Of a DNA stretch of 64,000 nt, positions 1,856 to 61,329 are shown piece after piece (position 1 is the first letter of the stretch; each line of letters begins with the position of its first letter). Source of the stretch: Octopus vulgaris (taxonomy: Eukaryota); contig OX597823.1 in the NCBI GenBank assembly GCA_951406725.2, positions 8,990,001-9,054,000 on the forward strand, in the 5' to 3' direction. The translations under genes were made by a program, and so were the position numbers. Under the pieces are notes generated by a model. It did not search any database. It saw only the letters and a list, made by a program, of their open reading frames with translations, and was not told the DNA's origin.

Positions 1856-2695
1856 AGAATGGTTGTATACTGTCAATCTAACAAGAACGTGACAGTAGGG
1901 GGTACACCACCGCTGTATAGCCCTAGGAAGCATCGAACGCCTCCTGATAGCTTTGACACATTTTTTCCCTGTGTTCTTATATACATTTACGAAGGGGAGA
2001 CAAACACCCCCAGCTGCCGCAACTGCATCTGGGGACACCGTGTTTCAGGATCGTTGTCCTTCATCGGCCTAGAGTAGCAGATACCGGTCAGCTGGTGATA
2101 TTTGCCTCGACTTCGTAATTGTCTATATCTATATTCAGTGAAGTTTATTCACTGATTATCAAAATAAGAAATATTGAATTTCTAAATCTCTCGTAGAGGC
2201 ATGTACGGTGGTGGGGCGATAGAATGGTTGTATACTGTCAATCTAACAAGAACGTGACAGTAGGGGGTACACCACCGGTGTATAGCCCTAGGAAGCATCG
2301 AACGCCTCCTGATAGCTTTGACACATTTTTGTCCTTATATACATTTTTGTCCTTATATACATTTTTGTCCTTATATACATTTTTGTCCTTATATACATTT
2401 ACGAAGGGGAGACAAACACCCCCGGCTGCCGGAAATGCATCTAGGGACACCGTGTTTCAGGATCGTTGTCCTTCATCGGCAGCCGGGGGTGTTTGTCTCC
2501 CCTTCGTAAATGTATATAAGGACACAGGGAAAAATGTGTCAAAGCTACCAGGAGGCGTTCGATGCTTCCTAGGGCTATACAGCGGTGGTGTACCCCCTAC
2601 TGTCACGTTCTTGTTAGATTGACAGTATACAACCATTCTATCGCCCCACCACCGTACATGCCTCTACGAGAGATTTAGAAATTCAATATTTCTTA
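1856..2695 (-). mobile_element. Retrozyme-like non-coding element, 365-nt unit: about 1.7 tandem copies plus an inverted partial copy, between (TA)n tracts
   Basis: AGAATGGTTGTATACTG recurs at 1856 and 2221 (period 365). 2477-2695 is the reverse complement of about 2165-2431, lacking the 18-bp stutter. Each unit has an HHR on the minus strand. Confidence 0.8.
2028..2073 (-). ncRNA. Type I hammerhead ribozyme (U4C core variant)
   Basis: Minus strand reads TCTAGG CCGATGA AGGA-CAACGA-TCCT GAAA CACGGTG TC CCCAGA. The second copy (2440-2480) has 3' arm CCTAGA, a perfect match to TCTAGG, but its own 5' arm is lost at the inversion. GUC cleavage triplet. Confidence 0.75.
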
Positions 2696-5600
2696 TATAT
2701 ATATATATATATATATATATATATATATATATATATATATATATATATATATATATATATATATATATATACGTATATAAATACTTATGTGTGCATATGT
2801 ATTTATATATCTACATATGTATGTATGTATGTATGTATGCCTGAAAATTTCTTTATCATTTACTGTGATGAATGCAAACGCACGTGTGTATATACGTACG
2901 TATGTGTGCATATGTATATATATATATATATATATATATATATATATATCAAATGAAATAAAAAACAGTATATGTATACATATGCACACATATACACGCA
3001 CTTCTACACAGACACATACACACGCAGACACACTCACAAACACGCACATATACATCTCAATATAATAAATGATTGCATATGCCAGTGTGTTCCTATTTTG
3101 ATATAAATGTGTTACTAATTTTTTACGTGTACATGTAGCAATGTGTGTCTGTATTAGTATGTGTATATTTTATATTAGTGTTCACATTTTGCTGCGTATG
3201 TATTTGGTCCCTATGTTTATCATCAAGCAGCATTGGCCTTGTTTTGTTGGAAGAAATTATAATAACATAAACTTTGCTGATATCAGAAAATGGCCGATAA
3301 CAGCAGGTTAAAACGCATAGCAAGAACATGGCGAAAATAATTTTTTCTATCTTCAATGGGAATTGATTCCTTCCAAGCCTTTAAGCTGGCACCGCTTTTG
3401 GTGTTTTGGGATTTTTCTATCTGCGCTTCTTCAGGCGATTAATGTTTGTTGTTGGTAGCGAGTTTTGATCATTTTATGCTCCCTAATACGTCAAAGAGAA
3501 AAACATGCACAGGAAAAACATAATCCGGAAACATAAAAAATACGATAAAATAGGCGGAAAAATGTTAAAGAAAAATATCTTAAACGATATTTCTCCTATT
3601 TTTTTTTATTGTAAATCTTCCTGATTTCCTTCGTTAGTATATATGCAAATGCAATGTTTAAGGCAAACAGCTTAATATAAGCTTGTTGCATTTATCGGTA
3701 GCAACTCTCATAGCTCTGCTTAAATATTCAACATAGATTGTACGTTGATGTCGATACACAGTTTAAAATACTTATAAGATTCTGCTTATAAAAACGGAAT
3801 ATTTCAGAACGAAACAAAACAATAATTTTATTCCCCTATACACCCGTGCATAACCATACACTGTGTACTCGACATCTTCCCTATCTCTATCTCTCTCACT
3901 CTCTCTCCCTTCTTTGCCCCTCTTTATTCACTGTTTATCTTAGTCACAGAAAAGGGATATATATATATATATATATATATATATATATTGATCGATAGGT
4001 AGATATATGTATACATATGTGTCTATGTATATATATATATATATATATATATATATATATATATATATATATATGTATATGTATATATATATATATATAT
4101 ATATATATATATCCCTACATATATGAATATACACACATATATATATATGTATCTATACATGCGTGTTTATATATACACACACACACACATACGTATACAT
4201 GTGTGTTTATATATATACACACACACATATATATACATGTGTGTTTATGTATAAATGTGTGTGTATCTAAGCACATATATATATATATATATATATATAT
4301 ATATAAATTAAAGAAAAACCACTGTTCTATATATATATATATATATATATATATATATATATGTGTGTGTGTGTGTGTGTGTGTGTATGTATGTGTGTAT
4401 GCATATATGTGTGTGTCTTTGTGTATATGAATGCGTGGGGGTAAGGTGATGGTTGACAATATATATGATAAACGGTTACACCAAATCGTAATTTACACAG
4501 ATTTTCACAAAGATCTTTACTATATAACCTTATAAGCACCACATGCATATCTCGTCATAGCCCTTATGCGCATTGTCATTTGTACGGGCAACTATATAAA
4601 CATGCACACACTTTATATTTGTGTGAGTTCACATAAATATATATACATCATATATACGTACATACATACATAAAAACACACAGGCACACATATATATGTA
4701 TATATTCATATATATACATATTGATATATATATATACACACATATACACATGTGTATACATATTTATATATACACCTATATATATATATACGTATATATA
4801 TATACATATTTATATATACACCTATATATATATATACGTATATATATATACATATGTATATACATATACATATATACCTATATATATGTATATATATATA
4901 CATGTATGTATATGGGTATATGTATATCATATATACACGTATACACGCATATATACATGTATATATATATACATATATATATATATATATATATATACTT
5001 GTATACACGCATATATATATATATGTATGTATGTATATGTATGTGTGCATGTATTTATGTATGTATGTGAGCATGTGTATGTTTGCAGTAAGTGAGTGTG
5101 TGTGTGTGTGTGTGTGTAGTGTGTGTGTGTATAGATATTTAAGCACACATATACAGACACATATACCTGCGCAAACACACATCCACCACTCATAAACGGA
5201 GAGACAGTAAAAATCCTCGCAGATCCTCACAAATAAACGTAAAACATTTGAATTATTCAAATAGTTAACGCTGTCATAAATTCTATTTATCGCAGTTCGT
5301 GCACTGTGTTGTTGTTGCACTATCATTGTTGTTGTTGTTGTTGTAGCTGGTGATGCCATAAACAAATATAATGATGCTGATGCTGATGTCTTATATTAAT
5401 GTGATAATAACTATGATGATGTTTTACGTGATGGTGTTGTTAATGATGATGATGATGATGATGATGATGATGATGATGAGCAATGGTGAATAGGGTCCCC
5501 ATCAGAGAAAAAGAAACAAGAAGGGGAAATATTGGTCGTTTATCTCCCCTTTATTTTATGCAAATTTTCTTTAATTCCTTCTTTCTATCTTGAATTCTTT

Positions 5601-5711
5601 CTTTCTATATTGTGCTTGTCGCTGTAGTTCATAATTTTTTCGTATTTTCCTTCCTTCCTTCCTTCCTTTCTTCCTCCATTCATTCATTCGTTCAATTATT
5701 CATTAATCCAA

Positions 5712-59026: not shown

Positions 59027-59439
59027 ACTTATTGATTTTAAACGCATGCTATGTATTGATTTTCACATACACATATATAGACACACAAGCACAAACAGAA
59101 ACTCACATCCATGAGCGCGCGCGCACACACACAGATACACACACACACATATACACATACGCACACACAGACATGACTGCACGTTCACAGTCGAGCCATA
59201 CACGCACGCACATATACGCCAAATTACAGGGCAAGGAGAGGGCAGCGGCTCTTGATACTAAACTAATCTGTGACCATCAGGGTAAGAGCTTTCAGGTGAT
59301 TGTCTCACGAAACTTGATTTATTTACAAGGTACGACACCCTTTTTCAAACAACTACCGGGGTCAACATTGCCTTTAATCATTTCGGGGTCGATAAATTAA
59401 GTACCACTGAAACACTGCGATCGATGTAATCAGTCACCG

Positions 59440-60870
59440 CCGTCATCCAGGTCAACAAGGACTGCACACTCCAGTGAGGTACCAGACTGGGTCCGAAAAG
59501 TCAGCTACTGGTTCAAATCTTCCAGAAACACAAGAGCTGGAAGTATGCCACAACCGGAATATTCCAACAGATGGCCATCCACGCGCGTCATCAAATAATC
59601 AAAAGAAAAATAATGACAAATGGTCAAGGGAAGATAATACGTTGCCTTTTATCTTCTTGAGGCCGACTAAATAAAGTACCAGTCAAATATCGGGACTGAT
59701 GCTATTAAGGAAGCCTTTTCTCTCGAAATTACCTGCCATGAGCAAAAACCCGAAATCATCAATATTATTAAGAATAAAAAAGCGCAATATTGGTAGTAAA
59801 TTGTTTTGATTATTGTGACAAGAGAAACAGTTGATTGAGCATTACAAAGTTAAATTCCTATAGCATACGTTATTTTACAGACGCCACCATGTGAAGACAG
59901 TCGTGTAAATCAAGTCTTGCCATGAATTTCCCCATAAATAAATCTAATACTAAATGAACCTACCTAAATTGGAGCGAGATGCACCTTGAAGTAAGATATG
60001 ATCGTACGTAGATAGTAACAAACTTGCCAACGTCAGAAGAAATATTATTAAAGAGAAATTGCCTACTGAATTAGAGATTGACCAAATTAAACAATCGATA
60101 AGGGATAAAAGGAACGAAGTTACAGCTAAAGAAGATACTAATGAGGAAATAATTATATCCCAACCCAGGTATGATGAGAGTGCAGTGATAATAGAAACAG
60201 TAAATGTAACAGGTAAGCAAAGTGAATTACTCTCTGAACCAACCATAAACACCAAGGCAGATGAAAATAGATGAAGAAAATCACACAGAAATTGACCAAA
60301 CTGAACTGGATGTCCTAAAAAGTCAAATCATGATTGAATAGCTGAAAATTAAGGAAACCCGTATGCATGAACGTGACATTCTCTCAAAAATCTACAACTC
60401 TAACAATAAAAACCTGATAGTAATTGGATATCATTCTGCTAATGAGGTTGATATTATAGATCTCAATCAAATGTACTATATATCCGCGAGGATCTCAACA
60501 ATTCTGTGGTGAAAATATTAGACAATGACAACATTCCCTCAAAAAAACCTATTTGGCACGAGCGTATTCAATACGAAATTCAATTACTTACTGACATATA
60601 CTGTTTAAACAGCCTTAAGTTTCTGACCAGAATATCAAACTAACAAAAATCAAGCAAAAGGTATCTGCTAAAGCTGCCCCCATAGCACAGTATGAACAGT
60701 GTTATATTCTTTAAAGACAAGAACAAGTTGAAAAATAACCCAAAATATTTTTAGAGGAAGATAGGGAAAATACCAGTTACTATAAAGTCTGTCTCATCAA
60801 GATAAGAAGTACAAAAATTTTGGAATAAAACTTGGTCAGAAGAAAAAACACAATAAAAAGACCCCTAAAA
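59440..60870 (+). mobile_element. Dong/R4-type LINE N-terminal (pre-RT) remnant
   Basis: KWSREDN, SYVDSNKLANVRRNIIKE, KKPIWHERIQ, KIKQKVSAKA, EVQKFWNKTWSEEK. Confidence 0.6.
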
Positions 60871-61329
60871 GCGACAGCTTTAGTCTTATATTTATAGACT
60901 GCCATATTAGTATGACGATAACTATTAATATCCAGTAACGCTGCCGTAATCTCCTTTAGAGAAACTTAGTAATTTTAATATTTCTATTATTGAAAACAAG
61001 TGGATGTATTCCACTGTAACTAGGTAAATAAAATCTTCGAACAGACGGTCAGTAGCGACACCTACTGGTTCTGACTACGCTGCATTGATAAAGGGCAACA
61101 ACCCTGAAACATGTCTGCATATGTCTGACTAGCAAGGTGAAGCGGCTGACCTCTCGAAGGTTCGTGTGTCATATAGCTAGCTAGAGGCGATGGCCTCTTG
61201 GAGCTAATCAGCGACAGCTTTAGTCTTATATTTATAGACTACCATATTAGTATGGCGATAACTATTAATATCCAGTAACGCTGCCGTAATCTCCTTTAGA
61301 GAGACTTAGTAATTTTAATATTTCTATTA
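60871..61329 (+). mobile_element. Retrozyme-like element, 340-nt unit plus about 119-bp terminal redundancy
   Basis: GCGACAGCTTTAGTC...TTTCTATTA at 60871 and 61211 with three substitutions; internal HHR. Confidence 0.8.
61081..61119 (+). ncRNA. Minimal type I hammerhead with U3:A8 core
   Basis: TGCA TTGATAA AGGG-CAACAA-CCCT GAAA CATG TC TGCA. Confidence 0.75.

Follow-up and report, generated by a model that had tools for sequence, protein, structure and literature searches.

Hammerhead-bearing insertions in an octopus genome: a coding Penelope-like element and six short RNAs that were probably copied by Penelope-type machinery

A 64,000-nucleotide stretch of the Octopus vulgaris genome (contig OX597823.1 of assembly GCA_951406725.2, positions 8,990,001 to 9,054,000; hereafter, the window) contains hammerhead ribozyme (HHR) folds of seven sequence families, which raises the question of what these elements are and how they came to be inserted there. 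A first-pass annotation of this DNA, made from the letters alone, described them as a window-wide system of unrelated, non-coding, retrozyme-like elements mobilized by Penelope-like elements (PLEs). The genome comprises 2.8 Gb in 227 contigs, with 35% GC and many microsatellites. The analysis presented here leads to a modified picture, to which we assign a probability of roughly 0.8, namely that all seven are insertions of families dispersed throughout the genome: one corresponds to the 3' end of a coding PLE, and the remaining six are short RNAs, lacking a long reading frame, that were likely copied by PLE machinery into AT-rich microsatellites. The family names (F365, F340, F485, F87, F200, F43 and F421) are labels coined for this analysis.

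The window was searched with a type I HHR descriptor that permits any Watson-Crick pair at positions 3:8, U4C, a base after position 9 and a palindromic helix III; the null model consisted of 100 dinucleotide-preserving shuffles for each of two block sizes. The descriptor yielded 13 matches at 10 distinct cleavage sites, compared to a mean of 0.37 and a maximum of 3 matches in the shuffled sequences, and a stricter scan produced 7 matches versus 0.15. The F87 site at 8724, which has a 3-bp helix I and A9C, was detected at a looser setting only and brings the number of sites in the window to 11. All seven families reported at first pass were thus recovered, with their positions and core letters, against about 0.4 matches in shuffles. 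The 11 sites contain G5 A6, G12 A13 A14, A15.1-U16.1, H17 and helices I and II throughout:

2029 to 2072, minus strand: F365 HHR; core (N3 to N9) CCGAUGA at 2067, with C3:G8 and U4C; 4-bp helix II; 9-nt palindromic helix III ACACGGUGU; predicted cut after 2034
8724 to 8768, plus strand: F87 minimal HHR; core CUGAUGC at 8730, with C3:G8, A9C and a G insert after 9; 6-bp helix II; helix III AGAACU; predicted cut after 8763
20069 to 20114, plus strand: F200 minimal HHR; canonical core CUGAAGA at 20074; helix III ACGU; U17; predicted cut after 20109
42150 to 42184, plus strand: F421 minimal HHR; core CCGACGA at 42154, with C3:G8 and U4C; helix III ACGU; U17; predicted cut after 42180
43241 to 43291, minus strand: F43 minimal HHR, inverted copy; core GUGAACA at 43284; helix III AAUAUU; predicted cut at 43248
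43369 to 43419, plus strand: F43 minimal HHR; core GUGAACA at 43376, with G3:C8; 7-bp helix I; helix III AAUAUU; U17; predicted cut after 43412
45467 to 45573 and 45953 to 46059, minus strand, 46308 to 46414 and 47356 to 47462, plus strand: F485 HHRs; core CUGACGA at 45565, 46051, 46316 and 47364, respectively; helix III ACGGUGCAUCGU
61080 to 61120, plus strand: F340 HHR; core UUGAUAA at 61085, with U3:A8; 4-bp helix II; helix III ACAUGU; predicted cut after 61115

A second F365 core, at 2479, lacks the 5' strand of helix I. The palindromic or near-palindromic character of helix III, already noticed at first pass, is evident in every family: self-complementarity (with G-U pairs allowed) extends over all positions in five of the seven, over 8 of 9 positions in one and over 4 of 6 in another. 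In a monomer, helix III would consist of 0-1 bp in F200, F421, F43, F87 and F340, 3 bp in F365 and 4 bp in F485, compared to 4-12 bp in dimers across the families, so that cleavage is predicted to occur in dimers, which are expected to form within the tandem in the case of retrozymes and solely between molecules in the case of linear elements. The plain CUGANGA core is present in just two of the seven families, and an Rfam search of the window detected no HHR at the gathering score and none among the 150 matches listed of 410 weak ones, in agreement with the earlier suggestion that canonical searches would miss part of these families. The isolated F365 HHR gave no hammerhead match in Rfam either.

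The F87 insertion contains remnants of a protein-coding element in two arms:

7071 to 8069, minus strand: inverted, 5'-truncated F87 arm with the end of the reverse transcriptase (RT) thumb, a CX4CxxC linker, a GIY-YIG frame (7302-7898) and the start of the 3' untranslated region (UTR)
8068 to 8937, plus strand: direct F87 arm with the RT thumb (8068-8357), (TA)23 and the 3' UTR/pseudo-long terminal repeat (pLTR; 8404-8937)

The inverted arm halts at a repeat resembling a short interspersed nuclear element (SINE) at 7071; the direct arm possesses a long 3' end with a 53-nt tail and is missing the linker and the endonuclease. Fragments of PLE proteins were found at 20 of the 30 F87 loci, and locus L199 encodes a single 695-aa frame that encompasses RT, linker and GIY-YIG endonuclease (Pfam RVT_1, E 8e-5, and GIY-YIG, E 0.011, both under the curated cut-off). 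In addition, F87 displays PLE traits, namely an HHR in the 3' repeat, 5' truncation, an inverted copy, a tail at one end and microsatellite targets. Judging from these protein matches, the 8724 site is the 3' end of a coding PLE, and the description of all seven families as non-coding fails for it. The closest known counterparts are probably the PLEs with a C-terminal endonuclease (Neptune/Nematis type), which share with F87 the RT, the CX4CxxC zinc-finger linker, the GIY-YIG domain, the HHR in the 3' repeat, the (TA)n targets and the tail, although its domain scores are below the Pfam cut-offs. Two near-identical loci about 1 Mb apart, L201 and L202, each contain a long interspersed nuclear element (LINE) with a 657-aa RT frame adjoining an F87 end and represent a segmental duplication.

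The remaining insertions in the window are the following:

1856 to 2696, minus strand: F365 insertion (365-nt unit) flanked by (TA)n on both sides; minus arm 1856-2480 with 1.7 units and a short 3' end, inverted plus arm 2477-2696 with a long 3' end and a 57-nt tail
19565 to 19925, minus strand: inverted F200 arm from the B box to a long 3' end (35-nt tail), with expanded (AAT)n and a broken HHR
19927 to 20176, plus strand: direct F200 arm with an A box at 19936, a B box at 19979, (AAC)n, body, HHR and a short 3' end
42073 to 42287, plus strand: solo F421 element (~210 nt) flanked on either side by (TA)n tracts; fixed 5' start and only one 3' end
43159 to 43563, both strands: F43 inverted pair, with the short end of the minus arm at 43159 and the long end of the plus arm at 43563 (62-nt tail); the 5' core strand is duplicated locally (19 bp)
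45242 to 46446, both strands: F485 insertion (485/486-nt unit); minus arm 45242-46101 with 1.8 units and a long end, then a junction piece and a plus arm that reaches 46446, where it is interrupted by an inverted copy of flanking DNA
47214 to 47584, plus strand: second F485 piece, whose short 3' end lies at 47584 (tail 101 nt), with (TA)n downstream
60870 to 61329, plus strand: F340 insertion of 1.35 units (unit of 340 nt here, ~362 in the family), with a long 3' end (57-59-nt tail)

The tandem or inverted arrangement asserted at first pass therefore applies to all families except F421, the element at 42150, which is solo.

The evidence that links the non-coding families to PLEs comes from the ends of these insertions. 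For each family, a first look at the genome produced 1394-4124 candidates, of which 40 were scored and 17-30 loci were fetched. In every family but F421, the insertions terminate at two fixed 3' ends, the 5' ends of the arms vary, and (TA)n or AT-rich DNA usually follows the 3' ends. The distance between the short and the long end is 53 nt in F87, 62 nt in F43, 35 nt in F200, 57 nt in F365 and F340, and 101 nt in F485. Removal of 17 overlapping loci left 90 rows with arms in both orientations, of which 18 were set aside (9 from F485, where an internal hairpin mimics an arm, and 9 with an end elsewhere). Among the 72 classifiable pairs, 69 combine a long and a short end, two are short-short and one is long-long. 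Counted over all rows, the long and short combination accounts for 7/7 in F87, 15/16 in F43, 14/15 in F200, 15/18 in F365, 12/16 in F340 and 6/18 in F485; in the non-coding families alone (F365, F340, F485, F200 and F43), it accounts for 62 of the 65 classifiable pairs. Given that single-orientation insertions end long in 36 cases and short in 23, about half of the pairs would be expected to be mixed if the ends were independent. In the published material on PLE insertions that carry inverted copies, a tail of 30-40 bp is described, often at one end only (Craig 2021, PMC8557442), and the PLE tail has been mapped to two reverse-transcription start sites in the part of the work of Frangieh 2024 available to us. 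This tail rule represents insertion-level support for PLE mobilization of the retrozymes and of a probable RNA polymerase III SINE (see below), so that the involvement of Penelope proposed at first pass now has a stronger basis than the evidence originally offered for it. With regard to the inverted arms themselves, two separately primed arms and one arm folding back both fit. At L092 (1866-2036), a short-ended, 5'-truncated F365 arm is joined in inverted orientation to an F43 tail with a 7-nt overlap; shared machinery would fit this junction, which could also be a nested insertion.

Three families, F365, F340 and F485, consist of head-to-tail units of 365, ~362 and 485 nt, respectively, with one type I HHR each and a maximum of eight units. 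They have no coding capacity, the unit closing on itself, and no linked PLE fragment was found at 30/30 F485, 30/30 F340 and 29/30 F365 loci in a search for F87-like proteins. The circles predicted from these units fold compactly (z of -9.7 for F365, -5.7 for F340 and -6.6 for F485 relative to 30 two-letter-block shuffles). The term "retrozyme-like" used at first pass is appropriate for these three families but not for F87, F200, F43 and F421. Divergence within a locus is below that between loci (0.52-0.60% versus 1.21% in F485, the copies of which are 98-99% alike, 1.9-2.2% versus 2.6% in F365, and 2.5% versus 3.6% in F340), and units and arms at the same locus have common subfamily alleles, which suggests one source RNA per locus. 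We rejected this allele concordance as proof of a circle because it cannot separate a circle from a uniform multimer; likewise, a religated unit circle and a genomic tandem are the same in sequence, so junction reads alone cannot prove circles. Contigs of four sequencing runs (three guessed to be RNA and one unknown) cover 29/29 F485 bins and were not used, as strand, ends and transcription are unreadable in them. The plus arm of the F485 insertion is split by an 820-bp inverted duplication of flanking DNA (46443-47252 and 47545-48366, 98% identical), which is possibly the product of a template switch onto target DNA during insertion.

In contrast to these tandem families, F200, F43 and F421 occur as single units, 210-260 nt in length, that begin at a fixed 5' position, and no run of complete HHR-bearing units was detected in 30 F200, 17 F43 and 30 F421 loci. 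The heads of F200 contain an A box at 24 of 30 loci and a B box at 22 of 30, with tRNA spacing, and lack TTTT at 28 of 30; from the general consensus and spacing of A and B boxes, we take this head to be tRNA-like, and transcription of F200 by RNA polymerase III from these boxes appears likely. Linkage of head and HHR is seen in at least 911 exact copies, and the genome contains 1402 exact matches to a 26-mer from the head. ARAGORN reported no tRNA in the window, and its low-threshold calls on the 30 F200 heads were inconsistent and were not used. With its two fixed 3' ends, inverted arms and no A-tail, F200 is not of the LINE-dependent type; target-site duplications were not scored systematically. 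A short fold-back of the head, with a 2-nt turn, is present at the 5' end of 12 of the 30 F200 loci (L138-L167). F421 resides at (TA)n targets and, like F200 and F43, carries a minimal HHR.

The cores of these ribozymes follow a pattern of their own. The 3:8 pair is Watson-Crick in all seven families, being C:G except for U:A in F340 and G:C in F43. Canonical U4 and A9 are not kept throughout: U4C is the consensus in F365 and F421, as was claimed at first pass, and A9C, which was overlooked, is the consensus in F87. The core is intact in 97/97 rows of F485, 48/48 of F365, 39/42 of F340, 31/34 of F87, 29/33 of F43, 27/32 of F421 and 29/47 of F200 (some rows being repeated through overlapping loci), and the commonest variation in F485 and F200 sits at the free N7. 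The odd cores (U3:A8, G3:C8, U4C and A9C) are therefore family consensuses, not decay. Because the first scans demanded a 3:8 pair, the scan was rerun with positions 3, 4 and 8 free over all fetched loci. It produced 180 matches in 13 clusters, 11 of which have a Watson-Crick pair at 3:8, including all seven clusters of at least four matches (C:G in three, U:A in three and G:C in one); five of these seven larger clusters are the window's own families. Shuffled sequences gave 2 matches per replicate, with 3/10 paired.

F365 and F340 turned out to be homologous (67% identity over 155 nt), so that the families, thought to be unrelated, amount to six lineages at most. In an alignment of 11 hand-picked copies, which represent two or three lineages and not 11 events, 95.7% of the cells pair and both sides changed in 9 of the 17 HHR pairs, including 3:8 (C:G in five copies, U:A in six) and a palindrome-preserving pair in helix III. 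As judged from the alignments, F365 and F340 provide the only homologous covariation in the 3:8 series, the rest of which compares unrelated motifs. A separate, young coding PLE family with many open frames of 781 aa (L213-L235 and L265) contains a U3:A8 minimal HHR with core and helix III identical to those of F340; cross-dimers between PLE and F340 retrozyme RNAs are conceivable.

The window is not special in HHR density and is better regarded as a sample of a genome-wide state. In ten 10-kb stretches taken at round coordinates, we found 6 descriptor matches and 8 insertions of these families (four of F421, two of F200, one of F43 and one of F87), compared to 7 insertions in the 64 kb of the window, so that the notion of a window-wide system gives way to one of genomic background. 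Exact genome matches number 3162 for a 22-mer with G3:C8 and 7881 for an F200 23-mer, against 0 for the controls. On one contig, F200 is denser at the start, with 51 of the first 100 exact matches within the first 4.7 Mb (of 30 Mb). Additional HHR families were noticed in the flanks of L008, L021, L043, L051, L069, L087, L175, L217, L227, L237 and L239, some with a long helix II and one with a further U3:A8.

We propose the following tentative scheme. A source copy would be transcribed, in the case of F200 likely by RNA polymerase III and in the tandem families likely by read-through. In F365, F340 and F485, unit-length RNA would be released by cleavage at successive HHRs, mostly in dimeric form via the palindromic helix III, and a host ligase may close this RNA into a compact circle; insertions of more than one unit would derive from the circle or from an uncut multimer. 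For F200, F43 and F421, the fixed 5' end of the template and the intact HHR within it imply an RNA that was uncut when copied; the minimal HHRs of these families would need a second molecule to form helix III and are probably slow or protein-assisted. More generally, since all families were copied across an intact HHR, the template must have been either uncut or religated. The PLE protein would nick the target, and DNA synthesis would start or resolve at two fixed positions of the RNA separated by 35-101 nt, a different one for each strand, so that the arms come to be inverted and a single end is tailed. Between rounds, selection acting on the RNA would preserve the 3:8 pair while its letters shift. 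Self-cleavage, expression and circle formation are predictions for these families.

Several observations weigh against this interpretation. The positions of the short and long ends were defined from the same loci in which they were counted, and, since the top-scoring of 40 candidates were retained in each family, the loci are biased toward window-like copies. F421 shows neither an inverted arm nor a second end at any of 30 loci, and the F200 head has no Rfam tRNA match. Sequence comparison with 58 PLE-related loci (50 GIY-YIG loci among 150 scored, from 6136 candidates, plus 8 long F87 loci) revealed no autonomous partner for F200, F421, F365, F340 or F485, and none of the 58 has sense-linked 3' homology to any of these families or to F43. 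The start of the F43 tail does resemble the F87 tail in register (0/1000 in the background), but this is one of 45 anchored comparisons and the likeness is not significant without anchoring; unanchored alignment of 3' segments is significant for F365 and F340 only. A motif that F87, F43 and F485 seemed by eye to share ahead of the short end was discarded as not significant (3-246/1000 in the background). In single-strand folding, the isolated HHR stretches fold no better than shuffles in five of the seven cases, as would be expected of dimer-type motifs. The published record, so far as it was accessible, includes poor cutting by minimal PLE HHRs (Cervera 2014, PMC4209133), failure of 8 of 9 frog retrozyme dimers to cut (Li 2026, bioRxiv 10.64898/2026.07.22.740005), cleavage of a lizard PLE that required protein and was dispensable for insertion in vitro (Frangieh 2024), and reduced in vitro activity with U4C (Perreault 2011). 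For coral and mussel retrozymes, efficient cleavage and circles are reported in the sections seen of Cervera 2020 (PMC7229834).

Among the alternatives, the one that fares best, although we consider it doubtful, is that F43 and F421, together with the 3' half of F200, are 3' ends or short, abortive pLTR copies of unsampled autonomous PLEs. Truncated copies of F87 do look like this, 10 of the 30 loci being without a protein match; the 3' UTR of F87 begins after (TA)n, which could fix the 5' break point as in F421; the F43 tail resembles that of F87; and solo minimal HHRs have been ascribed to truncated PLEs (Cervera 2014, PMC4209133, in the portion available). The sharing of upstream sequence, however, ends within ~300 nt in 17 F43 and 30 F421 loci; copies met by chance share the start, 8/16 F421 rows beginning within positions 1-3 and the two complete F43 pairs terminating at an identical 5' stretch; F43, F421 or F200 ends do not follow any of the 50 GIY-YIG loci in sense orientation; and F200 owns its head in the 911 or more copies mentioned above. 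An unlikely alternative is that in vivo cleavage by the HHRs is rare or absent, the fold being retained as a binding or folding signal for the PLE protein and the tandems arising from uncut multimeric RNA. It is in keeping with the templates spanning intact HHRs in all families, with the presence of U17 in three families, U4C in two and A9C in one, and with the lizard and frog results cited above. The 3:8 pair, G12-A14 and the letters of loops 1 and 2, by contrast, are kept across the 33% divergence of F365 and F340, which fits selection on an active fold; F485 combines a canonical core with A17 and the 4-bp monomeric helix III; and mussel, coral and axolotl retrozymes are described, in the literature as far as consulted, as cutting and circularizing.

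Spread at the DNA level (F43 as a miniature inverted-repeat transposable element and the tandems as satellites) or by LINEs, the likeness to PLEs being incidental, is very improbable. F43 does look like a 340-bp palindrome, F485 includes an 8-unit array, and LINEs are present in the genome (L201 and L202), but the ends of the two F43 arms are offset by 62 nt (15 of 16 pairs) and the center varies among copies, for which reason we rejected the miniature-element classification, while A-tails were not observed, the 3' ends are fixed and the 5' ends ragged, and the coding PLE follows an identical two-end rule. The original version, with seven unrelated non-coding elements that yield circular RNA and form a system specific to the window, is scarcely credible given the coding capacity of F87, the homology of F365 and F340, the non-tandem structure of F200, F43 and F421, and the 8 insertions in 100 kb elsewhere, even though three of the seven families are tandem retrozyme-type units and these three compare with ~0.45 per 64 kb in flanking sequences (5 loci in ~715 kb), the families having been picked post hoc.

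Further repeats were noticed in the window. Fragments of a Tc5/pogo-type transposase are located at 16780-17748 (HTH_Tnp_Tc5 and DDE_1 above the Pfam cut-off). A frame on the minus strand at 23557-23915 contains a CxxC..H..C motif which, we presume, recalls the C-terminus of a non-LTR (long terminal repeat) retrotransposon; its Pfam matches are of low complexity only. A plentiful SINE-like family, often split by (TA)n, is represented at 9140-9359, 10514-10998, 12213-12624, 20423-20894, 29208-29417, 32057-32606, 35137-35566, 55734-56165 and 58592-59027. Three dispersed repeat families occupy, respectively, 6899-7071, 27548-27741, 30642-31098, 44090-44407 and 46927-47160; 37039-37428, 53322-53557, 54369-54750 and 57675-58065; and 18404-18811, 27032-27351 and 32699-33060. 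Palindromic stretches without an HHR match are found at 29588-30039, 51536-51665 and 13793-13843, and a 690-bp inverted repeat (90%) at 21574-23445, among (TAA)n and also without an HHR match, could be an inverted insertion of the PLE type.

To return to the HHR families, much of the overall concept is already in print, including PLE hammerheads, retrozymes and U3:A8. Minimal HHRs in PLEs, with a palindromic helix III, dimers and U3:A8, are described in the accessible part of Cervera 2014 (PMC4209133), and U3:A8 and viroid U4C occur in nature according to the part of Perreault 2011 that we saw. The minimal HHRs of F87, F200, F421, F43 and the 781-aa family resemble those known from PLEs (PMC4209133; Lunse et al. 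2017 as covered in the review PMC6765202, each as far as available) in the base after 9, G10.1-C11.1, the palindromic helix III, the common U17 and the U3:A8 variant, and likewise in the thousands of mostly solo copies; consensus G3:C8, U4C and A9C, by contrast, are not among the part of the 56-motif alignment of PMC4209133 that was compared, and F200, unlike PLE minimal HHRs, has a promoter-like head. Li, Clavereau and Pollet 2026 (bioRxiv 10.64898/2026.07.22.740005) regard retrozymes as PLE derivatives that are not autonomous, and PLEs have been called a "strong candidate" for their mobilization (Cervera 2020, PMC7229834), in the text available from each. F365, F340 and F485 share with the metazoan non-LTR retrozymes, as described in the portions consulted, non-coding tandem units of 340-490 nt with GC below 50%, one type I HHR per unit, a compact predicted circle and PLEs in the genome. 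They differ in that two of the families have non-canonical cores and most insertions comprise 1-3 units rather than long arrays; moreover, in the same sources, dependence on PLEs is argued from co-occurrence and pLTR homology, whereas here it is argued from long and short 3' ends and inverted arms. F200 is similar to Schistosoma Sm-alpha and Sj-alpha (PMC6765202, available part) in being a short non-coding repeat with an HHR and a likely RNA polymerase III promoter, but Sm-alpha is tandem and released from multimers, whereas F200 is single-unit and linear, with a minimal HHR, PLE tails and inverted arms. The Chlamys derivatives such as MRC1 (PMC8557442, in the sections seen) are likewise non-autonomous, PLE-using and arranged in pLTR-like partial tandems; most Chlamys elements lack an HHR, and the derivatives share the 3' sequence of their partner, whereas here only F43 weakly resembles a coding PLE at its 3' end.

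What appears to be new is the footprint common to a coding PLE, three retrozyme families and two linear elements, one of these being the probable RNA polymerase III SINE, and the fixed G3:C8, U4C and A9C cores. In the literature covered by our search, G3:C8 was encountered solely as an engineered rescue and not in nature, and neither a tail rule in retrozymes nor a PLE footprint in a tRNA-headed SINE was reported. The words "ribozyme" and "hammerhead" do not occur in the accessible text of a 2026 octopus repeat annotation, and 235 Rfam hammerheads are given in the part seen of a squid genome paper. A CUGANGA search misses five of the seven families described here and Rfam misses all of them, so that ribozymes are probably undercounted in genomes of this kind.

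The mobilizer of retrozymes has so far been argued from co-occurrence or pLTR homology, and the rule of long and short ends supplies an insertion-level test for any genome; it also names RNA positions (the tails) that are usable in a PLE in vitro assay. F485, a young family with 98-99% alike copies, and the homologous pair that differs at 3:8 are ready substrates for the questions of cutting and of why PLE RNAs keep HHRs. We see an even chance that the complete picture holds, with a tRNA-headed SINE of the RNA polymerase III type (F200) that bears a PLE-style hammerhead and is inserted by Penelope and not LINE machinery, retrozymes bearing the same footprint, and G3:C8 fixed in thousands of copies. 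PLE parasitism would then extend to a likely RNA polymerase III SINE, and Penelope elements would own SINE-like parasites of their own, both linear and circular, recognizable by the tail rule alone.

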